Sequence record: PP359570
DNA: 64,000 bases
Source: Escherichia phage ALITA
Direction: 5' to 3' (one strand)
The notes beneath the pieces were generated by a model. The model saw only the letters and a program-made list of their open reading frames with translations. It did no database searches and had not been told where the DNA came from. Made by a program: the position numbers and the translations under genes. Of this stretch, positions 3,210 to 46,032 are shown one piece after another (the stretch's first letter is position 1; the number at the start of each line of letters is the position of its first letter).

Positions 3210-3235
3210 CAACATAGCTAGTTATTTGCTAAGAT
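3206..3235 (+). promoter_or_regulatory. sigma70-like promoter (-35 TTGACA 3206-3211, -10 TAAGAT 3230-3235)
   Basis: Consensus -35, 18-bp spacer; upstream of ORF 3266. Confidence 0.5.
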
Positions 3236-3265
3236 AAGCACAAGTTAAACAAAAAGGAGAAAACT

Positions 3266-3532
3266 ATGACAGAAAAGACTTATGGTAAAGAATTGATTGA
3301 GAAGCACGTATTGATTGATAATAAAGGTGGAGCAATCTTTATTTTTGAACCTGAATCAGTTCTTACTGAAAACGAAAATGGTAGCGTTAGCCTTAAAACA
3401 GAAAGTTTGGTAATTGACTTCCTTGCTCTTCTGGATGAAATGGGGCTTCCTCACGAAGAAGAAGCAGCTATTGCTTTGATTGCAGTTCTTCTGGAGAAAC
3501 GCGAAGCTGGTGAAATGACCCAGTATGCTTAA
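3266..3532 (+). CDS. hypothetical protein
   Basis: 88-aa ORF with strong SD aaaaaggag before ATG 3266. Confidence 0.6.
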   Translation: MTEKTYGKELIEKHVLIDNKGGAIFIFEPESVLTENENGSVSLKTESLVIDFLALLDEMGLPHEEEAAIALIAVLLEKREAGEMTQYA

Positions 3533-3539
3533 TATTCAA

Positions 3540-3615
3540 GGTTCCATAGCTCACTGACGAGAGCGCACACCTCATAAGTGTCGAGGGCAGGGATTGTAAC
3601 CCTGGGGAACCACCA
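3540..3615 (+). tRNA. tRNA-Met/Ile2 (anticodon CAT)
   Basis: Cloverleaf: acceptor GGTTCCA/GGGAACC, D-stem GCTC/GAGC, anticodon loop CTCATAA, T-stem CAGGG/CCCTG with atypical T-loop ATTGTAA, 3' ACCA encoded. Confidence 0.75.
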
Positions 3616-3646
3616 TTTAAAAGGAGGTGCTATGCATCTCCTATAT

Positions 3647-3732
3647 GCAAGTGTGGTGGAATTGGTGATACACATTGTGCTTAAAACGCAACGCTTAAAT
3701 GCTTGAGGGTTCGAATCCCTCCACTTGCACCA
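3647..3732 (+). tRNA. tRNA-Leu (anticodon TAA), type II
   Basis: Acceptor GCAAGTG/CACTTGC, anticodon loop CTTAAAA, 13-nt variable arm, T-loop GGGTTCGAATCCC, CCA encoded. Confidence 0.8.
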
Positions 3733-3734
3733 AC

Positions 3735-3840
3735 GCCTAGTAGGGTATTTGGTAATTCCGAGGCCATCAAAGCCTGAAAAATATGTTAGACCGTTTTGTC
3801 TAACTAAATACGAAATATGGTTCGATTCCATAACTAGGCT
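3735..3840 (+). tRNA. atypical long tRNA-like gene (about 106 nt), candidate anticodon TCA (would read UGA); Sec/Ser-like architecture
   Basis: Perfect 7-bp acceptor GCCTAGT/ACTAGGC, 6-bp D-stem with 4-nt loop, anticodon arm AGGC-CATCAAA-GCCT, long variable hairpin GTTAGAC-CGTTTT-GTCTAAC, canonical T-arm TATGG-TTCGATT-CCATA; no encoded CCA. Confidence 0.4.
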
Positions 3841-3875
3841 CCCGATTTAAATAGTAATTTTTTAATAAAAATATC

Positions 3876-3904
3876 TTGACATTTACTTAGTTTTTTGTTA
3901 TAGT
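3876..3904 (+). promoter_or_regulatory. sigma70-like promoter (-35 TTGACA 3876-3881, -10 TATAGT 3899-3904)
   Basis: Consensus hexamers, 17-bp spacer, TG upstream of -10; precedes tRNA at 3916. Confidence 0.55.
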
Positions 3905-3915
3905 CATTATGAAAA

Positions 3916-3997
3916 CGGGGTGTATCTCACCTGACTTCTAATCAGGCGTTAACCGAGTAATTGGAGTATGCAGGTTCGAATCCTGTCACCCCGGCCA
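3916..3997 (+). tRNA. tRNA-Arg-like (anticodon TCT), atypical: no canonical D-arm, 23-nt extra region
   Basis: Perfect acceptor CGGGGTG/CACCCCG, anticodon arm CCTGA-CTTCTAA-TCAGG, T-arm GCAGG-TTCGAAT-CCTGT, GCCA 3' end; only 7 nt between acceptor and anticodon stem. Confidence 0.45.
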
Positions 3998-4015
3998 AAA
4001 AGTTTTAAAAACTAC

Positions 4016-4044
4016 TTGACAAGCAAGATAGTTTTATGTTAGAT
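4016..4044 (+). promoter_or_regulatory. sigma70-like promoter (-35 TTGACA 4016-4021, -10 TTAGAT 4039-4044)
   Basis: Consensus -35, 17-bp spacer; precedes tRNA-Ser. Confidence 0.5.
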
Positions 4045-4060
4045 TTAAAGTATGGTAACA

Positions 4061-4150
4061 GGAAGGTAGGGCGCAGCGGTGCGCAACCAGGTTTGAACCC
4101 TGGCCCATTGTAGCGATACGGTGATGGTTCGACTCCATTATCTTCCTCCA
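4061..4150 (+). tRNA. tRNA-Ser (anticodon TGA), type II
   Basis: Acceptor GGAAGGT/ATCTTCC, anticodon arm CCAGG-TTTGAAC-CCTGG, long variable arm, T-loop GGTTCGACTCC, CCA encoded. Confidence 0.75.
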
Positions 4151-4168
4151 AATTCGCTTAGGAGCTTT

Positions 4169-4321
4169 ATGAATTATAAAACTATTGGACAGGTTGTTAC
4201 CGGAGTTAAGATTGTAAATAATAAAGTTGTTTATGAGTATTCTAATCTTCAACAATCTGAAGATGGTAAGAATATTTGTATGGTAAAAGCAGAACAAAAA
4301 GATTCCGGTTGTTTTGAATAA
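4169..4321 (+). CDS. hypothetical small protein (50 aa)
   Basis: ATG 4169 after SD aggag 4160-4164, immediately downstream of tRNA-Ser; ORF-track ORF 4121..4321 starts inside the tRNA so the internal ATG is preferred. Confidence 0.4.
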   Translation: MNYKTIGQVVTGVKIVNNKVVYEYSNLQQSEDGKNICMVKAEQKDSGCFE

Positions 4322-4329
4322 TTAAAAAC

Positions 4330-4415
4330 GGTAGATTGGTGAAATGGTAGCCACAACAGTTTGCTAAACTGTCGTCGGAAACGGCGTGTAGGTTCAAGTC
4401 CTACATCTACCGCCA
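4330..4415 (+). tRNA. tRNA-Ser (anticodon GCT), type II
   Basis: Acceptor GGTAGAT/ATCTACC, anticodon arm ACAGT-TTGCTAA-ACTGT, variable arm, T-arm GTAGG-TTCAAGT-CCTAC, CCA encoded. Confidence 0.8.
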
Positions 4416-4541
4416 AGTTATCTTTAATGTAGCTTGTAATCTTACTTTAGCAGAGTAAATCTTCGGCAAGTGGCAGTAACCACTTTACCGATAGCCCATA
4501 GTCAAGTGCCGCAAACACTGGCTATTTTAAAGATAATTTAT

Positions 4542-4617
4542 ACATCGTTAGCTTAGTTGGTAGAGCAAGGGGCTTTTAACTCCAAGGTCGAAGGTTCGAA
4601 TCCTTCACGATGTACCA
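4542..4617 (+). tRNA. tRNA-Lys (anticodon TTT)
   Basis: Acceptor ACATCGT/ACGATGT, D-arm GCTT-AGTTGGTA-GAGC, anticodon loop CTTTTAA, T-arm GAAGG-TTCGAAT-CCTTC, CCA encoded. Confidence 0.8.
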
Positions 4618-4622
4618 AACAC

Positions 4623-4709
4623 GTAGGTATCGCATAGCGGCAATTGCTGGAGACTGTAAATCTCTTGCCCTTCGGGGCTTCGTTGGTTCGAGTCCAACTA
4701 CCTGCACCA
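4623..4709 (+). tRNA. tRNA-Tyr (anticodon GTA), type II
   Basis: Acceptor GTAGGTA/TACCTGC, anticodon arm GGAGA-CTGTAAA-TCTCT, variable arm TGCCCTTCGGGGCTTC, T-arm GTTGG-TTCGAGT-CCAAC, CCA encoded. Confidence 0.75.
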
Positions 4710-4716
4710 AATTAAA

Positions 4717-4801
4717 GATGGATTGGCCTAGTGGTTGGGCGACGGACTGTTAATCCGTGAACGAAAGTTCTAGCAAGGTTCAAATCCTTGATCCATCGCC
4801 A
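4717..4801 (+). tRNA. tRNA-Asn (anticodon GTT) with unusually long variable arm
   Basis: Acceptor GATGGAT/ATCCATC, anticodon arm ACGGA-CTGTTAA-TCCGT, variable hairpin GAAC-GAAA-GTTC, T-arm CAAGG-TTCAAAT-CCTTG, CCA encoded. Confidence 0.6.
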
Positions 4802-4805
4802 AATA

Positions 4806-4873
4806 GTGCTTGTAGAGTTAATAGAAACCTCTAGAATTTTCTAGAATTGTAGGTATCAAATCCTACCAAGCAA
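4806..4873 (+). pseudogene. tRNA-like remnant (acceptor and T-arm-like pairing, no anticodon arm, no CCA)
   Basis: GTGCTTG/CAAGCAA acceptor-like pairing and GTAGG-TATCAAAT-CCTAC hairpin; internal region contains palindrome TCTAGAATTTTCTAGA instead of an anticodon arm. Confidence 0.25.
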
Positions 4874-4880
4874 ATATTTT

Positions 4881-4955
4881 GCTCCTATCGTATAACGGCT
4901 ATTACGGTTGCCTTGTAAGCAACTTATCAGGGTTCGAGTCCTTGTGGGAGCACCA
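4881..4955 (+). tRNA. tRNA-Thr (anticodon TGT)
   Basis: Acceptor GCTCCTA/TGGGAGC, anticodon arm GTTGC-CTTGTAA-GCAAC, T-loop GGGTTCGAGTCC, CCA encoded. Confidence 0.75.
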
Positions 4956-4977
4956 ATTTAACTCTAAAGGAGTGTAT

Positions 4978-5301
4978 GTGACAGAAAAAGAGTTAGAGAA
5001 ATATTTTAATATCAATGTTTTCGATGGTTTTGATGATATTGAAGATGTTGAAAGATATTATGAAGTAGAGTTAGATAAGGATAACATTGTAATTCTTTCT
5101 GCCACTTATGATTGTGCATATTATGAAGGCGAATCTCACGTTTATTTCTATGATATGAAAACATCTTTGTTTTATGAAGTACACGCATATCATTGTTCTT
5201 GTTATGGCTTAGAAGGTCAGTGGGAACCTGAAGAAATAGGTGATTTGAGCTTTACGGTTGCATATCTAAACAGACGTGGTGCATCTACTATTTTAAAATA
5301 A
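4978..5301 (+). CDS. hypothetical protein (acidic, Cys/His-containing)
   Basis: ORF-track ORF 4879..5301 begins inside tRNA-Thr; in-frame GTG 4978 follows SD aaggag 4967-4972 and is the likely start. Confidence 0.5.
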   Translation: MTEKELEKYFNINVFDGFDDIEDVERYYEVELDKDNIVILSATYDCAYYEGESHVYFYDMKTSLFYEVHAYHCSCYGLEGQWEPEEIGDLSFTVAYLNRRGASTILK

Positions 5302-5315
5302 ATATTAAAAGCCTC

Positions 5316-5345
5316 TTGACAAAGGGGCTAATAATATGTTAGAGT
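5316..5345 (+). promoter_or_regulatory. sigma70-like promoter (-35 TTGACA 5316-5321, -10 TAGAGT 5340-5345)
   Basis: Consensus -35, 18-bp spacer; precedes tRNA-Gly. Confidence 0.5.
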
Positions 5346-5356
5346 AATATTGTTAA

Positions 5357-5431
5357 GCGGGTATAGTGTTAATGGTAGCATATGAGGTTTCCACCCTCCA
5401 GGTGCAGGTTCAAGTCCTGTTACTCGCTCCA
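5357..5431 (+). tRNA. tRNA-Gly (anticodon TCC)
   Basis: Acceptor GCGGGTA/TACTCGC, anticodon loop TTTCCAC, T-arm GCAGG-TTCAAGT-CCTGT, CCA encoded; resembles bacterial tRNA-Gly(UCC). Confidence 0.8.
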
Positions 5432-5530
5432 AGATTATTTAAATGGAATCGCTAGAGAAAATTTCTCTTTTCGCTCATGGTTTTCTCCTTCAAACTCTAG
5501 CGGTTCTTTTTAAGTGATTTTTAGTTTTAT

Positions 5531-5605
5531 TGGAGATTAGCCTAGTGGGAAGGCAACGGCCTTTGAAGTCGTGATGACTAGGTTCGATTCCTAGATCTCC
5601 AGCCA
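5531..5605 (+). tRNA. tRNA-Gln (anticodon TTG)
   Basis: 5' U1 with A72 (TGGAGAT/ATCTCCA) as in bacterial tRNA-Gln, anticodon arm ACGGC-CTTTGAA-GTCGT, T-arm CTAGG-TTCGATT-CCTAG, GCCA end. Confidence 0.8.
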
Positions 5606-5647
5606 ATTAATTGCATAGCATGAGTATTTCTCATTGGTTAAAAGGAG

Positions 5648-6013
5648 ATGCAAGTGAATTGTGAACATTGTGGTAGTGAGTTTACTTTGATAAAAGGTCA
5701 TGGTGGACAAAACAGATCATACTGTTACACTTGTATTCCAGAAGGTTTAGATAAACAAGTACGCACAAGATTACATCAAGAACTTAGAAGAGAGCGATCT
5801 CATAAGATGAAACTTGATTTAGGTTGCAAAGTGTGTGGTTATGCTAAATGTGCAGTAGCACTAGAATGGCATCACCCAGAGGACGATAAGAAACACGATC
5901 CATCTAATGCAATCAAAAGATCTTGGTCTGCTTACTTAGAAGAGACTGAAAAGTGTATCTTACTATGTGCCAATTGTCATAGAGAAGTACATGCTGGTCT
6001 TATACAGGTTTAA
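5648..6013 (+). CDS. HNH homing endonuclease (free-standing, inside tRNA array)
   Basis: 121-aa ORF; CxxC...CxxC zinc-binding pairs and HNH motif WHHPEDDKKHDP...LLCANCHREVH; alternative start GTG 5654 has better SD spacing. Confidence 0.85.
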   Translation: MQVNCEHCGSEFTLIKGHGGQNRSYCYTCIPEGLDKQVRTRLHQELRRERSHKMKLDLGCKVCGYAKCAVALEWHHPEDDKKHDPSNAIKRSWSAYLEETEKCILLCANCHREVHAGLIQV

Positions 6014-6014
6014 T

Positions 6015-6090
6015 CAGTGCGTAGCGCAGTTGGTAGCGTGGGAGCCTTGGACGCTTCAGGTCGCAGGTTCGAGTCCTGCCGCACTGACCA
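6015..6090 (+). tRNA. tRNA-Pro (anticodon TGG)
   Basis: Perfect acceptor CAGTGCG/CGCACTG, anticodon arm GGAGC-CTTGGAC-GCTTC, T-arm GCAGG-TTCGAGT-CCTGC, CCA encoded; starts 2 nt after HNH stop. Confidence 0.8.
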
Positions 6091-6095
6091 AATTT

Positions 6096-6170
6096 GCAGA
6101 GATAGCTGAGACGGATTAGTGCTACCCTGAAAAGGTAGAAAGGATGGATCGTTACCATCTCTCTGCACCA
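6096..6170 (+). tRNA. tRNA-Phe (anticodon GAA)
   Basis: Acceptor GCAGAGA/TCTCTGC, anticodon arm CTACC-CTGAAAA-GGTAG, T-arm GATGG-ATCGTTA-CCATC (non-canonical T-loop), CCA encoded. Confidence 0.7.
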
Positions 6171-6247
6171 GATAATACCATCCAAGGAGAATACTTGGTT
6201 AACTGTCAATAGCACATTGAGGCTTCTTACAGTGGTGTACTTATTAT

Positions 6248-6332
6248 GGCTAAGTGGTGGAATGGTATACACGATACGCTTAGAACGTATTGCCCCAAGG
6301 GATTGTGAGTTCGAGTCTCACCTTAGCTACCA
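6248..6332 (+). tRNA. tRNA-Leu (anticodon TAG), type II
   Basis: Acceptor GGCTAAG/CTTAGCT, anticodon arm ATACG-CTTAGAA-CGTAT, variable hairpin CCC-CAA-GGG, T-arm GTGAG-TTCGAGT-CTCAC, CCA encoded. Confidence 0.75.
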
Positions 6333-6347
6333 AATTATTACAGGTTT

Positions 6348-6426
6348 CGCGGGATAGAGGAGTCTGGTCGTCCTCGCCAGTTTCATATGCTGGAGATCGT
6401 AGGTTCAAATCCTACTCCCGTTACCA
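6348..6426 (+). tRNA. tRNA-Met/Ile2 (anticodon CAT), second copy
   Basis: Acceptor CGCGGGA/TCCCGTT (terminal mismatch), D-arm GAGG/CCTC, anticodon arm CCAGT-TTCATAT-GCTGG, T-arm GTAGG-TTCAAAT-CCTAC, CCA encoded. Confidence 0.6.
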
Positions 6427-6470
6427 ATAAATACCTCCCTTCTGGTGTAATGATTAAATTACATTGACAC

Positions 6471-29701: not shown

Positions 29702-31861
29702 ATGAAACAGGCTATTTTTACTGTAACTCGAAATACGAGAGTAAATGCCAGTTCATTCAGCTATAAGACCGTCGATGGAACGGCGGTCGCTGGTAGAGAT
29801 TATGTAGCTAAACAGGGAACAGTAACGTTCCCTTCTGATGCAGATTCTGCTACTGTAGTGGTTGATGTATATGAACGTCCGGCAAACTCTTTAGATCTTT
29901 ATTTTACTCTTGAGATTACTAGCATAAGTCAAAATAACATGATGATCAACGAAGAAATTCGTTGTGTTATTACGACTGATCAATCGAATACAACCCCACT
30001 AACTTGGCCTGTTGTGAAGTCTAGAATGTTTGATCCTAAGTTTTGGACAATAGATTCTCAAGCAACAGAGAGTTGTTCTATTATCTCTAATGGTGATTCT
30101 TTCACAGCAAGAATGGTTAATAGGACAGTGGCTGGTCTTGCTGGGATTATTTGGTCAACTTACGATAAATATGATCACAAAGGATTAGGCTACCAAGAAC
30201 ATTCTGACTTAAGTAAAGAAAAACTTTGGTTTAAAATGGAACTTAGTCAAGGTGTTCCTGGATTAAAAGAAGAAAAATTAATACCATCCTTAACAGTGAC
30301 ACTGAAGGATGAAACAGTTCATTATGTATCTCTAAACTTTTATGCAGAAGAAGTTTCAGAAGATGGTAAGACAGCAACAATCAAACTAGATTTCTCAAAT
30401 TTAAAATCTGGGCCAGAAAATGATATTGTTGTTGACACTACACAGATAGATAATATGTTCTTCTCCTTGATCTCCACAAGGTATCAAGAAATTGAAGATA
30501 TTATTCCTGTAGACAATGTGGATCTTTCCTTTAAGTTTACCATACTAGAGCCTGATACTGGTTACAGTATGATGAATATGGGTAATTTAAATGTTCCGGC
30601 GCACACCATAAGAATGTGTACATCTTATGATGATATGTATAACCTAACCCCAGAGCGAGTTATTTCTAACACCTATAGATTAGGTTATAGAGATATGATT
30701 AACCATTATAATGGTATGTCACACTATTATCAATTCAGTTGGGATGCTGGATCTAATAAATGGGCTTTGAATAGAACAGAATATTTAAACCCAGCAACAG
30801 AAGCCTGGTTTGATAATTTCCACGCTAATGCAAAAGCTATGGGCTACACAGTAATGAACTCCTTAAGTTTTGAACTTATGAGTACAGTGTGTCCTGTAGA
30901 ATGGGTACAACATACTTGGAATGATGATCTGGCTGCTACAGGTTATGAGCCACCAAGTTATGTTTTATCTCCTTCAATTGATGAAGGGATGAATTATTTA
31001 CAAGGTGTAATAAATAAGATAGCTTCTATATCCGCTGCCAATGATCTTCCTGTTATTATTCAGGTTGGTGAACCGTGGTGGTGGTATAACACAGCTACCA
31101 ATCTCCCGTGTATTTATGATTATGCAACCAAAGTTGCATTTAATAATGAAACTGGATTATATGCACAAGATGTTGGTACAGTTAAGAATTATAAAACTGG
31201 TACACCATATGATGAATATTATGCATTCCTATCTAAAACATTAGGACTGCGTGTTGCTAAATTTGCAACAGATACTAGATTAGCATATCCTGGAGCAAAA
31301 GTTACATTGTTACCATTTGTGCCATCCATCTTAGGTAACGGTATGATGGAGTTTGTTAACTTCCCTAAAGATCATTATATCCCAGAAAACTTTGACTTTT
31401 ATTGTTCAGAATGTTATGACTGGTTGTTGGAAGGTCAGATGGAAAGATCTTTCGACGCTATCACAATACCTAATGAGCAACTAGGTTTTAGTTATGATAA
31501 GATACATTATCTTGCAGGGTTTGTTCCAGATGCAACTCTAGCACCATTATATGGCTTTGATCCTGAATCAGACTACAGAACATATTTGTGGAAAATGATT
31601 ATAGGTAATATTGTATTGAATGACCAGAAGTTTGTTGGTTTGTATCAATACATATGGGCTTATCCACAAATTATGGCAGATTCATTAACTGTTCTTAATT
31701 CAAAATCCCAAGTTTTTTATATGGGTAATGTGCCTTTGAATTGCTATTTGCAAGATATCACTCTTAAACAGGTAAATGTTGAGATTGCCACCATAGGTGG
31801 AATTACATTAGCCACTAAATCTGGAGAAGATTTAGTAACAACACAAAAATTTTATATATAG
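29702..31861 (+). CDS. large tail-fibre/baseplate structural protein (719 aa)
   Basis: Long ORF with SD. Confidence 0.5.
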   Translation: MKQAIFTVTRNTRVNASSFSYKTVDGTAVAGRDYVAKQGTVTFPSDADSATVVVDVYERPANSLDLYFTLEITSISQNNMMINEEIRCVITTDQSNTTPLTWPVVKSRMFDPKFWTIDSQATESCSIISNGDSFTARMVNRTVAGLAGIIWSTYDKYDHKGLGYQEHSDLSKEKLWFKMELSQGVPGLKEEKLIPSLTVTLKDETVHYVSLNFYAEEVSEDGKTATIKLDFSNLKSGPENDIVVDTTQIDNMFFSLISTRYQEIEDIIPVDNVDLSFKFTILEPDTGYSMMNMGNLNVPAHTIRMCTSYDDMYNLTPERVISNTYRLGYRDMINHYNGMSHYYQFSWDAGSNKWALNRTEYLNPATEAWFDNFHANAKAMGYTVMNSLSFELMSTVCPVEWVQHTWNDDLAATGYEPPSYVLSPSIDEGMNYLQGVINKIASISAANDLPVIIQVGEPWWWYNTATNLPCIYDYATKVAFNNETGLYAQDVGTVKNYKTGTPYDEYYAFLSKTLGLRVAKFATDTRLAYPGAKVTLLPFVPSILGNGMMEFVNFPKDHYIPENFDFYCSECYDWLLEGQMERSFDAITIPNEQLGFSYDKIHYLAGFVPDATLAPLYGFDPESDYRTYLWKMIIGNIVLNDQKFVGLYQYIWAYPQIMADSLTVLNSKSQVFYMGNVPLNCYLQDITLKQVNVEIATIGGITLATKSGEDLVTTQKFYI

Positions 31862-37947: not shown

Positions 37948-38289
37948 ATGGAGCTAACAGAAGTATGGGATATCGCTAAAGAGGCGATTATCCCTCTTAT
38001 TGGCGTAATCTGGGTGGTCTTCAAACAGAAGATAGATGATATGGCAAGTGATTTGGATAAAATGGAAGACAAATACCGCGAACTAGAAAAGAAGTTGGTG
38101 TTTGTTGAATCCACTTATGCTACCAAAGCAGAACTTGCTCAAATGCTTAACCAGATCAACTCTACATTAATGGCAAATAATACTGCCTTAGAACAGAAGA
38201 TTGAAAAAATAATGGATTTAAAAAATGCTCCTGTTCAATTAATGCTAGAGGAGATTACAAAGCGCACACAAAGTAAGGACAAAAATTAA
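37948..38289 (+). CDS. hypothetical protein (N-terminal TM helix plus coiled coil)
   Basis: 113-aa ORF. Confidence 0.35.
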   Translation: MELTEVWDIAKEAIIPLIGVIWVVFKQKIDDMASDLDKMEDKYRELEKKLVFVESTYATKAELAQMLNQINSTLMANNTALEQKIEKIMDLKNAPVQLMLEEITKRTQSKDKN

Positions 38290-40703
38290 TGGCGAATTTT
38301 CCAACATATCCTGCTACGACACTAGAACAAGGTGTTGATCTGGTTATATTCTCGTCTAACCAGATGCATGATGTTATTAATGGGGATGCTACAGCAACTG
38401 TAGAAACCGAAACAGGTTTAATACCTACACTGCGTAAAGCACTTGTTGATAACTTCTTCTTTAAGAGTCCTGTTGCTTGGTCAGCAGGATCAACTGAAAC
38501 TGTATTTAACCAGTTACGTTATTTTGAAAACGGTATCTTGAGTGGGTACTATTATGCCCCATCTGCCACTACTGCGAACCCTGTACCTATGCAGGGCACA
38601 CCTGTAGGGGACAGTAACTGGACTCTGTACGCTCTTAAAACTGAACAGTTAGCTTCAGATGTGTATCCTTGGTATTTTAAAGGTGCTACAGGATATGAAA
38701 CAGAAATCAGTCCTCCTTATATCTTTGATAATGCTATTGTCACCATTAACGGTGTAATTCAGATTCAAGGTGAAGCATTTACTATCAAAGATAGTAAAAT
38801 TATTCTGGCAGAACCATTAGGTTTAGATCCGTCTACTGGTCTACCTAACAAATTGTTTGCTTTTATTGGTAAAACAACAGCCTCTACTTCTTACGTAGAG
38901 AAAAACCTTTTGTCATCTACCACTGGTGCAGCAATGGTTGGTCTTCCATCTGGAGGCAACCTGTTACAAGCTCAATACTTTGTAACGCCTGAGCAGTTTG
39001 GTGCAATTGGTGATGGAGTTACCGATGATACTCAAGCAATTTTAAAAACTATTACTTTCGCTAACACGAATAACATTCAAGTACGTGCAGATAAGAATTA
39101 TAGATTCACAAGCTCAATTGCTATGTCTGGTATTCGTTGGTATGGTGGTACATTCACTGGTAACGGTGGAACAATGATTTCTACTGTGTCCTGTTGGATG
39201 GAAAACGTTCGCTTTGAAAAATGTTATGTTAAGATGTTAGGTGGTGATTGCCGATTCTATCGTAATATCTTCTCCAACGCAACATCTACAGCAGCATTCT
39301 TAATGCAAGCAATGACAAGTGAAGGTACGTTGGACTTCAGTTACAACGAAATGTATGGTTGTAAATATGCGATCCTGCAACAAGGTACTGGAGAAGTAAT
39401 GACCTACGGGCGTTACTCTAACAACTATATTCACGATATCAAAGGTGATGCTATTGAACTTAACGTAGTTCAAAAACACTACACTGAAGGTTTGATTATC
39501 GAGAATAACCACATTGCTAACGTAGATGCTTCTGGACAAGGTGCAAACTGGGGTATTGGTATTGGTGTAGCAGGTAGTGGCCCATATGGTGTTGATGTTC
39601 CTGATTCACAATATGTACGTAATTTCAGTATCGTTGGGAATAGGGTTTACAATTGCCGTCAATGTCTACACGTTGAAATGGGTAAAAACTTCACAATACG
39701 TGATAATGAAGTTTATCCTAACACAGCAGTTTCAACAGGTACAGGTTTAACTACTTGTGGTGTTGCATTATACGGATGCCAAGATTTTGAAGTTGATGGT
39801 TTAACTGGTTATCTGCTCAATGATCCGTCTGTTTCAACACGTATGGTCTTTATTGACTGGGGTGTTAACAGTGGAAGATATGCGGGGCCACCAATTAACT
39901 TTACAATTAAGAATTTGGATATTCCAGAATCTTCAATTGAGATTGCAACCTCTGGATCAGATGCTTGGGAAAACTCTACAATTGTTAGTAATATCAATTG
40001 TAATGTTTTTAAATGGCGTGGGCTACCATCTAGCTCTACTTTTAATAATATTCGTTGCCGTAGTATTGACTTTATTGGTCAACACGGAAGCGGAGAAGGA
40101 AGTGGTGGCGGTTTCTATACTCGCAGCCAATTCACGTATATGAAGTGGGTAGGATGTACAGCACTTAGCGGAGATGAAACAACAGTTTCTTTTGCTAAAA
40201 TCTACACTGATCGTTGCGATCAGGTTGGAAATAACTTTGGTGTTCCAACTGCTGTTGATGGTACAGGTCATCGTGGGCCAGTTTTAACTACTATTTCTGA
40301 ACAATATTTTACAGCTTATGATGAATTCCCAGGTGGGCGTGAATTCCCTACTGGAACAGTTATTCATTGTGCAAGCGGTAAAAAACATGTTGTTACAGTA
40401 GGTGGTGCTTTCTTTAGTGCCAACGAGAAAATAAAAGCAACTGTTACAGGTCAAACCTATCTACAGTCTAATGCTTTAAACTGGGCTAGTAATGGCTACG
40501 CTAAAGCAGCAGGTACTAAGATTGTTATTCCAGGTGCAGGTGCAAATGGCGGCGATCTTGTGACAACTATAGCACGTGCTACATATGTGACAAATAGTTT
40601 GTACACAATAGATATTGCAGATCCAATTGTAACACCTACAGCAGAGAATACACAAATTAAAGCTCTGAATCCTGTTACTTTTGTTACTGTCAACAATGCT
40701 TAA
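38289..40703 (+). CDS. tailspike with pectate-lyase-like right-handed beta-helix domain (putative depolymerase)
   Basis: 804-aa ORF; segment GAIGDGVTDDTQAILKTI typical of the N-terminus of pectate-lyase-superfamily beta-helix domains. Confidence 0.55.
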   Translation: MANFPTYPATTLEQGVDLVIFSSNQMHDVINGDATATVETETGLIPTLRKALVDNFFFKSPVAWSAGSTETVFNQLRYFENGILSGYYYAPSATTANPVPMQGTPVGDSNWTLYALKTEQLASDVYPWYFKGATGYETEISPPYIFDNAIVTINGVIQIQGEAFTIKDSKIILAEPLGLDPSTGLPNKLFAFIGKTTASTSYVEKNLLSSTTGAAMVGLPSGGNLLQAQYFVTPEQFGAIGDGVTDDTQAILKTITFANTNNIQVRADKNYRFTSSIAMSGIRWYGGTFTGNGGTMISTVSCWMENVRFEKCYVKMLGGDCRFYRNIFSNATSTAAFLMQAMTSEGTLDFSYNEMYGCKYAILQQGTGEVMTYGRYSNNYIHDIKGDAIELNVVQKHYTEGLIIENNHIANVDASGQGANWGIGIGVAGSGPYGVDVPDSQYVRNFSIVGNRVYNCRQCLHVEMGKNFTIRDNEVYPNTAVSTGTGLTTCGVALYGCQDFEVDGLTGYLLNDPSVSTRMVFIDWGVNSGRYAGPPINFTIKNLDIPESSIEIATSGSDAWENSTIVSNINCNVFKWRGLPSSSTFNNIRCRSIDFIGQHGSGEGSGGGFYTRSQFTYMKWVGCTALSGDETTVSFAKIYTDRCDQVGNNFGVPTAVDGTGHRGPVLTTISEQYFTAYDEFPGGREFPTGTVIHCASGKKHVVTVGGAFFSANEKIKATVTGQTYLQSNALNWASNGYAKAAGTKIVIPGAGANGGDLVTTIARATYVTNSLYTIDIADPIVTPTAENTQIKALNPVTFVTVNNA

Positions 40704-40744: not shown

Positions 40745-42706
40745 GTGATTTTAACACGTCCAAATAGTGCCATTGCAGACATGGTAGAGTCTCGCTATAG
40801 AAAGCGTAGAAGTTTTGCAAGTGGTTTTACCTTAAGAGATGCTCGTGAAGCATTGCTCTTTGAAACTGACGGTAACTACTATCAGTGGAAAGGTTCTCTA
40901 CCTAAAGTTGTACCTGCTAACTCTACTCCTACATCTACTGGAGGGATTTCAGATACAGCTTGGAAAAATGTGGGTAATGCAGATGACATTGCTCAAATAG
41001 AATCAGAATTAGATGCTATTGAAGCTGAAATTGAAGATCTTAGAGAATCCATTCCAGAGGCTGGTAAATCAGCTTACCAGATTGCCGTAGACAATGGTTT
41101 CCAAGGTACTGAGACAGAGTGGTTGGCTTCTTTAAAAGGTGATCCAGGTGCTCCATTAAAGCTGCTAGGGACGCTATCTAATACCAACCAATTACCTACA
41201 ACTGGAAACAATGCAGGAGATGCATGGATTGTAGGCGAGAATATGTATGCTTGGGATGGTACGGCTTGGAGAAAAGTAAACTCACAGGGGCCAGAAGGTA
41301 AATCCGCTTATCAAGTTTGGCTTGCAGCAGGAAACCAAGGTACAGAACTAGATTATCTTGCTTCAATTAAAGGTGATAAAGGGGAGCCTGGCCCAGAGGG
41401 GCCACAAGGTGTGCCAGGTAACAATGCTAATGGTTTTGATTACCAAGGTGCAGCTAATTCCGTTTCAGATCTTCCTTCTGCATCTCCTGGAAACACATCT
41501 CAAGCATGGAGTATTGGTACATATCTATACGTGTCAAACGGTGTAGAATGGATCAATATGGGTGCTATAGTGGGGCCAAAAGGAGATAAAGGCGACAAAG
41601 GAGATAAGGGTAACACTGGTGATTCTGCTTATCAAGTCTGGTTAAATGCTGGTAACGTTGGTACTATTGACGAATATATTGCCTCTCTGAAAGGAGAAAA
41701 AGGTGATAAGGGAGACAAGGGTGATCAAGGTGAGCAGGGTATACAAGGCTTGACGGGGCCAACTGGTGCAGGGTTGACCATTATTGATATTCTGACTGAC
41801 ACTTCTGAACTACCAGGAACTGGAGAAGATGGTGATGGTTATCTGATCAATAATGAACTTTGGGTTTGGTTGCAAGGAGCCACACAGTGGACAAATGTTG
41901 GTCGTTTAGCTGGTACTCCAATCACTGCAAAAGGACACGTTGCGTCTGCAAGTGCACTTCCTCCTACATCCAATTACGGTGATGCTTATCTGACGGAAGA
42001 TACAGGTCATCTTTACATTTACACCTATGATGAACAAACTCAAACTGCTGAATATGTAGATATGGGTAGTTTGAAAGGTGATAAGGGTGAGAAAGGTGAC
42101 GCTGGTACTAACGGTACGGATGGTGCAACTTGGATTGTTAAAACAACAGATCCAATCTCTAGTGATGGTAAACAAGGTGATTATGCCTTTAATATCTCCA
42201 CTGGCGAGGTGTTCTTAAAAACATCTGCAACTGTCTGGACTTCTCAAGGTACACTACCTAGCATCACAGATGCACCTAGTGACGGTAAGATCTATGCTCG
42301 TAAAGATGGAGCATGGGAAGAACTCACTAGTTCTGTAGATGGTCAAGATATAGTTCCAACAAAAGTAACAACTAATTTTATAGAGGTTACAGCATACACC
42401 AACAACTCTGTTACAGGGGACTGGACACCTCCAGGAACACATAACATGAATGTGTTGAATCTTACTGGTAACTCTACTATAAAAGCATGGCCTGGTGTCG
42501 AAGATAGCACAAAACCTAAACCATTCTCTGCAATAGTTTATCTTATCCAAGATGCCACTGGGGGTCATACTGTTACTTTAGATCCATCTTACAAAGTAAT
42601 TGGTTCTAGTGATATTAATACAGATCCTAACGGAGTAACAATACTACAACTAACATATTGTGGTGTTGGTGATTACGTGGATGCTATTGTTGCTAAACGC
42701 ACATAA
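40745..42706 (+). CDS. tail fibre protein with collagen-like G-X-Y repeats
   Basis: 653-aa ORF; runs such as GDKGEPGPEGPQGVPG, GPKGDKGDKGDKGNTGD, KGEKGDKGDKGDQGEQGIQGLTGPTGAG; three copies of a GKSAYQ...SLKG module. Confidence 0.65.
   Translation: MILTRPNSAIADMVESRYRKRRSFASGFTLRDAREALLFETDGNYYQWKGSLPKVVPANSTPTSTGGISDTAWKNVGNADDIAQIESELDAIEAEIEDLRESIPEAGKSAYQIAVDNGFQGTETEWLASLKGDPGAPLKLLGTLSNTNQLPTTGNNAGDAWIVGENMYAWDGTAWRKVNSQGPEGKSAYQVWLAAGNQGTELDYLASIKGDKGEPGPEGPQGVPGNNANGFDYQGAANSVSDLPSASPGNTSQAWSIGTYLYVSNGVEWINMGAIVGPKGDKGDKGDKGNTGDSAYQVWLNAGNVGTIDEYIASLKGEKGDKGDKGDQGEQGIQGLTGPTGAGLTIIDILTDTSELPGTGEDGDGYLINNELWVWLQGATQWTNVGRLAGTPITAKGHVASASALPPTSNYGDAYLTEDTGHLYIYTYDEQTQTAEYVDMGSLKGDKGEKGDAGTNGTDGATWIVKTTDPISSDGKQGDYAFNISTGEVFLKTSATVWTSQGTLPSITDAPSDGKIYARKDGAWEELTSSVDGQDIVPTKVTTNFIEVTAYTNNSVTGDWTPPGTHNMNVLNLTGNSTIKAWPGVEDSTKPKPFSAIVYLIQDATGGHTVTLDPSYKVIGSSDINTDPNGVTILQLTYCGVGDYVDAIVAKRT
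41063..42130 (+). repeat. intragenic collagen-like triplet repeats and tripled module within tail fibre gene
   Basis: Repeated ggtgataaRggNgaN DNA units and three SAYQ-module copies near 41065, 41296, 41618. Confidence 0.55.
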
Positions 42707-42707
42707 T

Positions 42708-42734
42708 CAAAGCCCCTTCGGGGGCTTATTGTTT
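42708..42734 (+). terminator. rho-independent terminator
   Basis: AGCCCC-TTCG-GGGGCT followed by TATTGTTT. Confidence 0.55.
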
Positions 42735-42745
42735 AAGGAGATTAA

Positions 42746-44905
42746 ATGTATCCTATTCCTTTATTTATGTCAACAACATCAGCTTCAGTAGTAACAGCTA
42801 CATCTATAACTACTTCCTCTATTGGTATTGCAATAGTTGGTGGTAAAAAACAACTGACATACACAGTTACACCCGAAGATGGTGCGTTATTTGATATAGC
42901 TTTTTCATCTTCAGATGATACCAAAATGGTTATAGATAATAGTGGTATGATGGAGTTTGTTGCCGAAGGTGGTTTTGATGCAATAATGACAGCTAAAAAT
43001 AATTTAGGTGCTGTCTTAACTGATCAATCTGGTGGTTATGCTTCAGAATTAAGTGTGTACACTGAAAGTCTATCGGCTATGGATGTAGGCACTACTCAAC
43101 AGTTGGTTGCTACAATCAGTCCAGAAGGTGCTAAAGACCTTCCAGATATGGTAATTACATACACCACAACAGATCCAGAAGTAGCTACTGTAAGCCCTAC
43201 AGGGTTAATAACTGCTCTTAAAGATGGCGGTTGCCGTATAGGTTGTACTGCAACGTATCAAGGAACAGTTGTGGCCTCTGATAGTTCTTATTTAGGTGTT
43301 AATGCTATTCCTGTTATTTCTAATGTAACAGCCGTGGCAAACAGCTATGGAGACGTTCGTGTTGCTTGGGATGTAGCTGATCCGCTAGACGGTGATACTT
43401 ATACTGTAGAAGTATTAGATTTAAGTAATAATAGTGTTCAGTGGACTACAACAACCACGAATACTTACGCCTACTTTGATATCTCTGACTCTATTCCTCT
43501 TTATGGGTTTGCTCCAACATACCTTAAAATTAGCGTTAAGAGCACCAAAGCAGCAGCCGTTATCTTTAATAACTCAATAGCTACAGATGATTCGTTCATT
43601 AAAGAAGTTATTGTCTTTGCTGGACAAGATAACGTAAATGCACACTTTACAGAACTATCTGGTGCAAATAAAGCAGCAATGGGTAGCACAACAGCCCGTA
43701 ATGCATATGCTACGCAACGTGGTTTAGCAAATGCTGAAGTTCTTCCGTTAAATACAGCTTCTGGATCATCAGCAGCAGATAAATATGCTGACGATAAAGC
43801 TGGAACAGGTACACCAGATAACTACTGGTATGATTTGGATAACACAGCAGATGGGCCATGCTTAACTAACTTTATCACTAAAGTCACACCTTATGCAAGT
43901 AAGGTTAAAGCAATTATTTGGGGACAAGGTGAAAATGATGCTGTATCAGCATCTTCGACTGTTGCAGGTAGGTACAGTAACACTACACGTTACCATGATG
44001 CTACGATAGCTATCTTTGATAAGATGCGTACAATAGTTCCTGCTTCTCAAGCAAAAATTGTTTGGCAGATCCTAGGACGTTCTTATTTATATGGTGTAGA
44101 AGTTAATGGTGTGGATTGGCAGAAGTACAGAAATGTACAAAGAACCATCTCTACAGCACGTGATGATGTTATCATTGGTTCTTGGGTAGATGGTGCTGAA
44201 CGTTACAGTGGTTATGTTTATGAAGAAGGTATTGATGGTCGTATCCATTATGTTTCTTCTGTATACCAAACAGCAGCTACAAAACTTGCTAAATCAGCAG
44301 CAGACGGTACAGACTTAACATCAACGTCACCTGTTTGGGTTGATATGGCTGTTCCAACTGGAGCAACAGCTACTTCCCAACCTAATCAAGATACAATTTT
44401 AGCATGGGATGCTCAAGGCTATAGTAAACACTACTTCCGTAATATTAACGTCTTAACCGCATCTGTATTAACTGAACAAACGCTTAATACGAACAGTTAT
44501 ACGTTTACCTATGCAGATCAAGTAGAACAATATGGTTTTGCAGCAGGAACTACTATATTTGATGTTGCATATTATGACGAAGCAAATGATGTGTTATCTC
44601 CTTTAGTACGTTTTAATGTTAACGTTACAGCAGGAACCGTAGAAGATAAACCTGTCGTGATGGACTATGATTTGACGCAAGAAACTCTTCCATCAGATGT
44701 TAAGGTTAATGGTGGGAACTCTTTTGCTCGTGCTTCTGGAGATATACTTGTAGCCACTAACACCTTGGTTGCTCCGTTGGAGTATGTTGGTAATACCCCT
44801 GTAGGTAGACGTGTAACAGCTAACACAGCTTCACAAATTTTTGTCAACAACGCCTTAACAAGTGCAAGCCCGTGGGTAAAGACCAACTTAACTGTTGCAG
44901 CTTAA
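42746..44905 (+). CDS. tail fibre / tailspike with SASA-type (SGNH-like) carbohydrate esterase domain
   Basis: 719-aa ORF; esterase-like motifs VIVFAGQDNVNAHF and KAIIWGQGENDA in the central region; Ig-like N-terminal region. Confidence 0.5.
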   Translation: MYPIPLFMSTTSASVVTATSITTSSIGIAIVGGKKQLTYTVTPEDGALFDIAFSSSDDTKMVIDNSGMMEFVAEGGFDAIMTAKNNLGAVLTDQSGGYASELSVYTESLSAMDVGTTQQLVATISPEGAKDLPDMVITYTTTDPEVATVSPTGLITALKDGGCRIGCTATYQGTVVASDSSYLGVNAIPVISNVTAVANSYGDVRVAWDVADPLDGDTYTVEVLDLSNNSVQWTTTTTNTYAYFDISDSIPLYGFAPTYLKISVKSTKAAAVIFNNSIATDDSFIKEVIVFAGQDNVNAHFTELSGANKAAMGSTTARNAYATQRGLANAEVLPLNTASGSSAADKYADDKAGTGTPDNYWYDLDNTADGPCLTNFITKVTPYASKVKAIIWGQGENDAVSASSTVAGRYSNTTRYHDATIAIFDKMRTIVPASQAKIVWQILGRSYLYGVEVNGVDWQKYRNVQRTISTARDDVIIGSWVDGAERYSGYVYEEGIDGRIHYVSSVYQTAATKLAKSAADGTDLTSTSPVWVDMAVPTGATATSQPNQDTILAWDAQGYSKHYFRNINVLTASVLTEQTLNTNSYTFTYADQVEQYGFAAGTTIFDVAYYDEANDVLSPLVRFNVNVTAGTVEDKPVVMDYDLTQETLPSDVKVNGGNSFARASGDILVATNTLVAPLEYVGNTPVGRRVTANTASQIFVNNALTSASPWVKTNLTVAA

Positions 44906-45046
44906 TCTGATAAATCTCCGGCTGGAACTACTGCCAATGTATTCAAATTAACTCCGACTACAACCTCTGGTAGTCATATCTTAACTGCAACATATACTAA
45001 CGCGTACAACATATCTGCCGGACGTAACTGGTCTGCCTCTGTTTTC

Positions 45047-45565
45047 TTGAAAGCGAACGGGATCACTAAGGCCAAACTAAGATTAAAAGCAGGAACTGAA
45101 GTTAATGAGGGTACTTTTGATTTAGCAGCAGGTACATTCACAGGAAGTGAAGCTAATATTATATCTATGGGCAACGGTTGGTATCGTGCTATTCTGCATA
45201 AAACAGGGATAGCCAAACAGTCCTCCATAAGTTTTGAAATAATTGCCTTGGATGCAACTGGTGCGGAGATTTTCGCTGGAGATGGTACTAGTAACCTTGC
45301 AGTTTGGTTGCCACAGCTTGAAGGTGCTTCTACAGGAGAAACATCAAAAGCTGGATCGCCTTATGTCTGCACATATCCTGGAAATTTAGGAGGAGTATCC
45401 TTCACTATACCAAGGAACGGACATACTGGTGTGGATGTTTACTATTCCAACGGAGACGTTGTTCGTGACGTATTCTCTGGTACGGCATCTACTTGGACAA
45501 TAAACTACTCCAGCTTGTACGATTGGGGATCAGTCTTTATTACAGGTTTGAAATATTACGACTAA
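45047..45565 (+). CDS. ORF in the same frame as the upstream tail fibre gene, separated only by a TAA (possible read-through extension, C-terminal domain gene or pseudogenised 3' part)
   Basis: 44906-45046 contains 47 sense codons in frame with 42746..44905; first conventional start is TTG 45047 without SD. Confidence 0.3.
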   Translation: MKANGITKAKLRLKAGTEVNEGTFDLAAGTFTGSEANIISMGNGWYRAILHKTGIAKQSSISFEIIALDATGAEIFAGDGTSNLAVWLPQLEGASTGETSKAGSPYVCTYPGNLGGVSFTIPRNGHTGVDVYYSNGDVVRDVFSGTASTWTINYSSLYDWGSVFITGLKYYD

Positions 45566-45567
45566 TA

Positions 45568-45597
45568 AAAAAGGAGCCATTAGGCTCCTTTTCTTTT
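45568..45597. terminator. bidirectional rho-independent terminator between convergent gene blocks
   Basis: AAGGAGCC-ATTA-GGCTCCTT hairpin flanked by AAAAA upstream and TTCTTTT downstream. Confidence 0.65.
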
Positions 45598-45600
45598 ATC

Positions 45601-46032
45601 TTAGTCAGTGAAAATTACGCTTACATCTTCTTTAGAAAAGAGTTTATGATCTTCACCTTTTGTCTCAAGAGTTTCATACAGATTAAGAAGTTCTGAAACA
45701 TCTTTCTCTACCAGTTTCTTCAATGTTGCAATTTTCTGTTTGCGACTCTTAATACGTTCAGCTACAACCTTACGCTGGTATCCGGCAGTACGATAACCTG
45801 AGAAAGTTACACCAGTAAGGCTTGCAGTCACAGGATCGTAGTGACGTTCAATCTGAAACTTATTAAAAGGTACAGCGTCATCACGAATAATCTTACCGCC
45901 ATTACTTACCTGACGAAGACCAGTAACTTGCTCCAGTCGTGCCATAGAAATCTTTGGAGACAGACCAGAGTCCAGGTTCATACCATTGTTAATCAGTGCT
46001 TTCAGGGTGATTTTGCTGTTCAGTGTACTCAT
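45601..46032 (-). CDS. hypothetical protein
   Basis: 143-aa ORF; 5' end overlaps methyltransferase gene 3' end by 44 nt. Confidence 0.45.
   Translation of the reverse strand: MSTLNSKITLKALINNGMNLDSGLSPKISMARLEQVTGLRQVSNGGKIIRDDAVPFNKFQIERHYDPVTASLTGVTFSGYRTAGYQRKVVAERIKSRKQKIATLKKLVEKDVSELLNLYETLETKGEDHKLFSKEDVSVIFTD

Follow-up and report, generated by a model that had tools for sequence, protein, structure and literature searches.

A serine-less SASA-fold module in a tail appendage protein of the phi92-like Escherichia phage ALITA

The locus

We analyzed a tail gene in the 64,000-nt stretch of Escherichia phage ALITA (sequence record PP359570), which as a whole is called the window here. 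An open reading frame (ORF) of 719 amino acids runs on the plus strand from an ATG at position 42746 to a TAA ending at 44905, exactly as given in the original prediction, which had been made from the sequence alone and took this ORF for the whole gene. The boundaries are correct as read; the ORF ends at an in-frame TAA, and the orthologues are 939 amino acids long. The encoded protein contains a domain with the SASA/SGNH esterase fold whose active-site serine is replaced by aspartate, and we lean, with moderate confidence, towards the view that this module belongs to an accessory surface-glycan adhesin of a phi92-like tail and binds sugar rather than deacetylating it.

The source phage is a Justusliebigvirus, a phi92-like myophage of E. 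coli in the Stephanstirmvirinae. Over the segment 42746-45565, phages inny and Paula were 99.4% identical to ALITA in DNA sequence, and about 20 other phages 97.6-99.1% identical. The 719-residue ORF matched PHROG 32204 ('tail protein', E = 0), and its gene is the last of the tail-fibre/tailspike cluster, directly downstream of the genes for a colanidase tailspike and a collagen-like fibre. The coordinates of all features are collected in Table 1.

The central domain has a SASA/SGNH fold

A SASA/SGNH-like carbohydrate esterase domain had been proposed for the middle of the protein from two motifs, and both are present (VIVFAGQDNVNAHF, residues 288-301, and KAIIWGQGENDA, residues 388-399). Compared singly with the Pfam SASA family (PF03629), the full ORF scored 14.9 bits, with the best stretch at residues 374-436, and the isolated domain scored 16.7 bits; the gathering threshold of 24.8 bits was not reached. 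A word-indexed protein search with the domain returned two fragments only, and an exhaustive HMMER search with it returned 78 cluster representatives. When 34 aligned homologues were scanned, 25 matched Pfam SASA at E ≤ 0.01 (best 2.1e-13), and the family profile searched against the PDB matched N4 gp65 (9lc0_I, 1.9e-84), At4g34215 (2apj, 5.6e-6), and CAC0529 (1zmb, 9.3e-6). Because these Pfam and profile matches arise at the level of the homologues, the resemblance to SASA proteins goes beyond chance, even though the single-sequence search that had been suggested stays below threshold.

The AlphaFold2 (AF2) model of residues 270-560 (predicted local distance difference test, pLDDT, 93; predicted template modeling score, pTM, 0.88) adopted a three-layer α/β/α fold. 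A Foldseek search with the domain model placed N4 gp65 first (4.5e-15, TMq 0.73), followed by 1zmb (3.1e-7), which was the top match outside phages, and 2apj (4.3e-6); there were 71 PDB matches at E ≤ 1e-3, and among the matches listed most were SGNH/GDSL esterases. The structure prediction thus recovered the esterase fold, and the central domain is a true relative of SASA/SGNH proteins both in evolution and in structure, as had been claimed.

An aspartate occupies the position of the catalytic serine

In SGNH enzymes, the block I serine is the nucleophile that accepts the acyl group, and the reaction passes through a serine acyl-enzyme intermediate; SASA proteins are marked by a glutamine beside the nucleophile, held by the QGE of block III in an 'inverted oxyanion hole', and substitution of SASA block I or block III residues abolishes activity (PMC9487903). 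In the ALITA protein, this signature consists of Gln294 and Q394-G-E396. Alignment with 47 full-length homologues revealed serine in the nucleophile column of 40, and Asp295 at this place in the ALITA protein, aligned with the serine of the GQSN block in 2apj and 1zmb. Secondary-structure assignment of the AF2 model with DSSP put strand 1 at residues 287-293 and a helix from residue 295 onward, so that Asp295 comes right after β-strand 1, where SGNH enzymes place their serine (PMC9487903). The likeness to a GQSNM block noted in the original prediction holds for the alignment of block I with GQSN; the block itself reads GQDN, and the defining serine is absent.

The substitution is not confined to ALITA. 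GQDN was found in all six Justusliebigvirus genomes translated (KMB37, PaulScherrer, inny, Paula, alia, and phi92) and GGDN in both Avunavirus genomes checked (Av-05 and 18-1-2), and in the homologue alignment the column was aspartate in the representatives of these two genera. Five other representatives had alanine, methionine, glutamate, or valine there, and loss of the serine therefore recurs in the family. Other parts of the site are intact in the Justusliebigvirus protein, which retains Gln294, the QGE of residues 394-396 in a W-G-Q394-G-E396 context, and His501. The aspartate usual at three positions before the block V histidine is absent, this position being Gly498 with Asp497 one residue further upstream; close serine-containing homologues likewise have no aspartate there, and neither does EcNanS. 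A compensating serine peculiar to the clade was not found, as the 'GSS' of block II occurs in serine-containing homologues too. The Avunavirus orthologue has also lost Gln294, the glycine of block II, and Gln394.

Since aspartate has replaced the residue that would form the acyl-enzyme, canonical esterase activity is not expected, and canonical esterase chemistry must be called unlikely on these residues. The same holds for the deacetylation of surface polysaccharide that had been proposed for the fibre, given the missing nucleophile and the missing aspartate before the histidine. An active O-acetyl esterase fibre would strip acetyl groups from surface polysaccharide in the manner of G7C gp63.1, with Asp295 or another residue standing in for the serine. 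The fold, the retained Gln294, QGE, and His501, the many homologues that keep the serine and look catalytically competent, and one GenBank annotation as 'tail carbohydrate esterase' speak for such an enzyme; we nevertheless consider it unlikely, because aspartate sits at the nucleophile position in every orthologue examined, the described mechanism needs a serine acyl-enzyme and does not survive block I or block III substitutions (PMC9487903), no clade-specific serine compensates, and the Avunavirus losses suggest relaxed constraint on the catalytic machinery. Absence of the serine makes the GenBank label doubtful. Overall, the original prediction is half right: it correctly saw a SASA-like fold in a tail appendage that bears immunoglobulin (Ig)-type repeats, and a deacetylating fibre is unlikely.

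Comparison with characterized proteins leads to the same picture. The domain shares its fold, the block I glutamine, the QGE, and the histidine with SASA/CE6 esterases (PF03629; At4g34215, CAC0529, and E. coli NanS), and like NanS it has no block V aspartate; unlike them, it carries aspartate in place of the nucleophilic serine, scores below the Pfam threshold, and is flanked by FN3 domains within a structural protein of a phage. The esterase tailspike G7C gp63.1 reportedly deacetylates O-antigen. The esterase tailspikes of N4-like phages (G7C gp63.1; Moo19/B2, PMC11654681) follow the same concept of an SGNH-type domain aimed at surface polysaccharide, but, in a comparison by description only, they are reported as active, trimeric deacetylases with a serine nucleophile, whereas the ALITA protein lacks the serine and resembles a monomeric chain of beads.

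Module architecture and natural variants

BLASTP comparisons together with AF2 modeling of an intact, 99%-identical orthologue (representative P0003), on which the full-length run was made, divided the protein into three modules: N (residues 1-191), M (residues 192-631), and C (residues 632-939). The Ig-type repeats expected at the N-terminus proved to be two Big_2 domains (PF02368; 46.3 bits against a cut-off of 22.8, E 4.3e-12, in two stretches), modeled as β-sandwiches at residues 14-100 and 101-187 with a pLDDT of about 90. Module M is an FN3-SASA-FN3 cassette, the first FN3-like sandwich of which (residues ~192-277) had no Pfam match. In module C, a low-confidence linker (residues 628-697) preceded a confident jelly-roll (residues ~700-870). 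By sequence, the 310-residue region of this module, with the stop codon repaired, matched 9occ_C (6.8e-20) and 6tb9 (2.4e-13) in the PDB; a 172-residue fragment scored 35.2 bits with NCBIfam GTA_spike_fiber (NF048003), just under the cut-off of 36, and some module C homologues carry the ConA-like domain PF13385. Head spikes of gene transfer agents (GTA) bind capsule. Module C is homologous to the head-spike fibre of RcGTA (6tb9; Rcc01080) and to an appendage at the C-terminus of gp17, the distal tail protein of Sf11 (9occ); the carrier proteins are different. The Sf11 gp17 appendage was left unmodeled and its function has not been established (PMC12724387).

Searched as a whole with Foldseek, the full-length model matched N4 gp65 best (5.8e-30) and then bead-chain adhesins, and no motif of a trimeric fibre was seen. 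The label 'tail fibre' is thus a loose one; the modeled build is that of a bead chain, most like N4 gp65.

Natural variants separate the modules. The Avunavirus Av-05 orthologue (647 residues) aligned by BLASTP to residues 1-627 and ends there, an N+M design, whereas the representatives P0081-83 aligned to residues 1-191 and 632-939 only, an N+C design; the gene neighborhood of P0081 matches that of the ALITA gene. A 496-residue orthologue in the Logan assembly SRR30535871 (locus L010, 6001-7491) joins the Big_2 pair directly to the C module without FN3-SASA-FN3; its gene neighborhood matches, and coverage by GenBank phages is at most 62%. Within the genus, megablast matches stopped at query nucleotide 2544 of 2820 in EmilieFrey, JohannJBalmer, VivaForever, Nernie, and EC_OE_11, and by this comparison the C-terminal tip, the last ~90 residues (~45290-45565), is a variable region that differs in some Justusliebigviruses, which would fit a tip that sets specificity. 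Module N is the sole part constant across the variants and therefore probably the end that docks on the virion; on this pattern, M and C are distal heads that can be exchanged. As the Avunavirus orthologue consists of N and M only, M must supply the distal function of that protein.

A premature stop codon in ALITA

The orthologous gene is 2820 nt long and encodes 939 residues in KMB37, PaulScherrer, inny, Paula, and alia. The ALITA frame is open through 45565 apart from codon 720, a Ser codon in these five relatives, where a C-to-A substitution (TCA to TAA) removes the last 220 residues. A strong terminator-like hairpin with a T-run lies just past the natural stop and shows where the gene truly ends; terminators are annotated at the matching place in phage Paula. 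The TAA allele appears private to ALITA: none of the 16 matching GenBank phage records was identical over 61 nt (50,697 phage records searched), and a 32-mer over the stop codon had no exact match in IMG/VR. The window carries a plus-strand cluster of 15 tRNA genes (3540-6648), including two each for tRNA-Met, tRNA-Ser, and tRNA-Leu; no suppressor was found among these 15, none of which reads a stop codon. Downstream of the stop no decay was detectable, with one to six nonsynonymous codon differences from the relatives and no further stops. The 172-codon ORF that opens there with a TTG continues the same frame, and no evidence of its separate translation was found.

If the stop were an error of sequencing or assembly, or a minority variant, and the phage really made the 939-residue protein, this would account for a single-base difference from all relatives with the downstream frame perfectly kept. 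We regard this as quite unlikely. The change is a substitution and not a homopolymer indel; the neighboring genes, among them the upstream tailspike and fibre genes, agree exactly in length with their counterparts in relatives, from which it follows that the assembly is not generally error-ridden; and the nearby difference at codon 723 (Lys in ALITA, inny, and Paula; Asn in KMB37, PaulScherrer, and alia) is ordinary lineage variation and not local noise. We favor a recent genuine nonsense mutation over general sequence noise.

The stop lies right where the folded C domain begins, and the product is predicted to comprise N and M plus about 90 poorly structured residues, close to the 647-residue Avunavirus design. 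In phi92 (NC_023693, 1911-3573), the gene survives as a degenerate copy, annotated as gp152 and gp153, that carries two frameshifts and lacks both the first FN3 domain and all of module C; the gene is thus evidently dispensable in culture. A dead or decaying gene in ALITA, with a truncated product that is unstable or unassembled and a phage that copes without it, is a doubtful but serious alternative. It is encouraged by the stop codon peculiar to this genome with no suppressor tRNA at hand, by the loss tolerated in phi92, and by the N+C variant, which shows the M cassette to be dispensable; against this, the stop leaves N and M whole, which is the natural Avunavirus architecture, and the lack of further lesions downstream means either that the mutation arose very recently or that the product remains in use.

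Relation to N4 gp65 and the N4 glycan receptor

Phage N4, the Vequintavirinae, and phi92-like phages need wecB/nfrB, the genes of the N4 glycan receptor (NGR), and share a 'glycan deacetylase' fibre (Maffei 2021; Sellner 2021). We considered whether the gene at 42746-45565 is this published fibre and rejected the assignment, as a 2026 preprint (10.64898/2026.04.02.716166) traces the shared NGR determinant to proteins of the phi92 gp142 type, which bear a GMSHY motif and are represented in ALITA by the separate ORF at 29702-31861. That ORF also has 719 residues, by coincidence. The domains NCTSP_N (PF23844) and TIM-barrel_NCTSP (PF23845) gave no match in the ORF at 42746-44905 and lie on the gp142-type ORF instead. 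In six of six close M-cassette homologues scanned, NCTSP_N and the TIM barrel stand upstream in the same polypeptide, as they do in N4 gp65. As far as domain content tells, an N4-type receptor-binding protein is split over two ALITA genes about 11 kb apart. Fusion of the cassette to the TIM barrel elsewhere suggests that both ALITA parts act on the same polymer; as a lead, the M cassette and the TIM-barrel fibre may handle the same exopolysaccharide.

The non-contractile sheath/receptor-binding protein N4 gp65 (PDB 9lc0, 9yf4; relatives in N4-like phages of Achromobacter, Pseudomonas, and Delftia) is the best match of the cassette in both sequence and fold. Both proteins are chains of domains, and gp65, a virion protein, has a second SASA-like domain that also lacks catalytic residues. 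It differs in that it starts with NCTSP_N and a TIM barrel and has two SASA-like domains, of which gp64 apparently completes the first, whereas the protein of the myovirus ALITA, unlike that of the podovirus N4, begins with two Big_2 domains, has one SASA domain, and ends in a lectin-like C module. Domain 2 of gp65 is catalytically dead (GINQF and PWE at the motifs, His replaced by Tyr) and provides a precedent in a solved virion protein.

This precedent also bears on the possibility that the SASA-fold domain is a structural spacer or assembly bead without a ligand, while module C or other fibres make all contact with the receptor. We hold such a bead to be rather unlikely. Catalytic residues have been lost repeatedly in the family (7 of 47), the dead gp65 domain is built into a sheath, and an N+C variant without the cassette exists, all of which would suit a spacer; but the residues that form the pocket, Gln294, QGE, and His501, are retained in Justusliebigvirus, and the Avunavirus protein, with N and M only, needs M for any distal function.

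A further idea, that the serine was lost because the NGR of E. coli is not O-acetylated, had been prompted by O-acetyltransferase genes in the nfr cluster of Achromobacter. It was not supported, as the first SASA-like domain of N4 together with gp64 keeps its serine and histidine, and a Pseudomonas phage has lost both residues in domain 2.

The first SASA-like domain of N4-type sheath proteins stops short behind block III, covering profile positions ~24-190. In the product of the next gene, gp64, the N-terminus (residues ~15-87) matched the missing block V part, including the histidine, at E values of 1e-10 to 3e-8 in N4, phiAxp-3, and Arace01; the phiAxp-2 counterpart matched more weakly (1.4e-4) and had no aligned histidine. 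The comparison covered N4 (locus L009, with gp65 at 3220-7368 and gp64 at 7401-8654), phiAxp-3 (L011), phiAxp-2 (L012), and Arace01 (L013). One SASA domain thus appears to be split over a gp65/gp64 heterodimer, with the serine and histidine kept in N4, phiAxp-3, and Arace01.

A proposed role for the protein

The analysis shows the fold and homology of the domain, the replaced residue, the stop codon, and the modular build; from these we propose the following arrangement for the accessory adhesin towards which we lean. Module N, with its N-terminal peptide and two Big_2 domains, would dock on the virion; module M would be an FN3-SASA-FN3 cassette of the N4-type sheath/receptor-binding kind; and the jelly-roll of module C, similar to a head-spike fibre, would be the probable tip that determines specificity. 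With Asp295 in it, the pocket of Gln294, QGE394-396, and His501 would no longer run the serine acyl-enzyme cycle, and the SASA-fold domain more probably binds sugar in its pocket without hydrolyzing it, as a lectin derived from an esterase, or at the least acts as a structural bead. The partner of this domain is possibly the exopolysaccharide handled by the TIM-barrel fibre at 29702-31861. In ALITA, the stop at codon 720 would leave an appendage that may still assemble, without the distal lectin tip.

Several points weigh against this proposal. With Gln294, QGE, and His501 retained, some chemistry could persist, and a GenBank annotator has read the protein as an esterase; the aspartate is shared by just two lineages (41-47% identity), which is weak evidence for selection on it; a literature search found no assay or biochemical data for the protein or any orthologue; and the connection to the NGR is drawn from domain-fusion logic; the published NGR-binding determinant is the other gene.

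A stronger version would have the Asp295/His501 pocket re-tooled, either as a lectin for an acetylated or amino-sugar exopolysaccharide, for example the N4 glycan receptor, or as a carboxylate-based enzyme on the SGNH fold for a different reaction. We think this distinctly improbable. Were it true, a conserved conversion from esterase to lectin or neo-enzyme would be common to the Justusliebigvirus and Avunavirus phages of E. coli; for the lectin, cooperation with the separately encoded TIM-barrel fibre would be implied.

The protein family was already present in databases, and annotators had noticed the esterase-like fold; what is new is the serine-less site common to a clade of E. coli myophages, the nonsense allele peculiar to ALITA, the division into modules N, M, and C, and the fusion link to the TIM-barrel fibre. 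Phages related to phi92 are valued for a very broad host range, achieved through many receptor-binding proteins at once, and both the engineering of host range and the annotation of genomes benefit when enzymes are told from lectins among these. Fusion of the cassette to the TIM barrel of N4-type sheath proteins gives a testable lead to a second module that may recognize the N4 glycan receptor, and the nonsense allele, the phi92 pseudogene, and the N+M and N+C variants are ready material for dissecting what each module contributes.

Gene context and feature coordinates

Table 1. Features of the ALITA window discussed in the text, with coordinates, strand, and basis.
Feature	Coordinates	Strand	Basis
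719-codon ORF + TAA, truncated allele of a 939-codon gene	42746..44905	+	ORF list; PHROG 32204
Full orthologous frame, 939 codons + TAA at 45563-45565	42746..45565	+	Intact in KMB37, PaulScherrer, inny, Paula, alia
SASA/SGNH-fold domain, serine-less, residues ~285-525	43598..44320	+	AF2, Foldseek, profile against PDB, Pfam SASA in homologues
Block I, G293-Q294-D295-N296	43622..43633	+	Homologue alignment; Asp295 = GAT, 43628-43630
Block III, Q394-G395-E396-N397-D398, SASA-type QGE motif	43925..43939	+	Homologue alignment
Block V, His501 (CAT)	44246..44248	+	Homologue alignment; kept in 44/47 homologues
Premature ochre codon 720, TAA; TCA or TCG (Ser) in relatives	44903..44905	+	DNA alignment
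Module N, residues 1-191: conserved N-terminal peptide (MYPIP...) + two Big_2 sandwiches	42746..43318	+	Pfam, AF2, BLASTP
FN3-like β-sandwich 1, residues ~192-277, first part of module M	43319..43576	+	AF2 strands at residues 190-277, pLDDT ~88
FN3-like β-sandwich 2, residues ~540-627, end of module M	44363..44626	+	AF2, BLASTP
Module C, residues 632-939: linker + jelly-roll lectin-like domain, interrupted in ALITA	44639..45562	+	PDB search, NCBIfam, AF2
Mechanical ORF, TTG start, 172 residues = orthologue residues 768-939, same frame	45047..45565	+	ORF list; PHROG 11922 positions 699-870
Hairpin + T-run like an intrinsic terminator, just past the natural stop	45569..45602	+	Terminator prediction
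gp142-type gene, N4-sheath-type N-terminal domain + TIM barrel	29702..31861	+	Calx-beta, NCTSP_N, TIM-barrel_NCTSP; GMSHY at nt 30713
Colanidase-type tailspike gene	38289-40703	+	PHROG 6117, TSP_Ig-like
Collagen-like fibre gene	40745-42706	+	Tail_spike_N domain, collagen repeats, fibritin-C-like end
GC-rich stem-loop between the collagen-like fibre gene and the 719-residue ORF	42710..42727	+	Terminator-like match and sequence reading
Ribosome-binding site AAGGAG, 5 nt 5' of ATG 42746	42735..42740	+	Sequence reading

The gene is preceded by its own ribosome-binding site and by a GC-rich stem-loop that separates it from the collagen-like fibre gene (Table 1). The cumulative GC skew of the window climbs to about 46 kb and then drops; this turn coincides with the switch, directly after the gene, from structural genes on the plus strand to replication genes on the minus strand.

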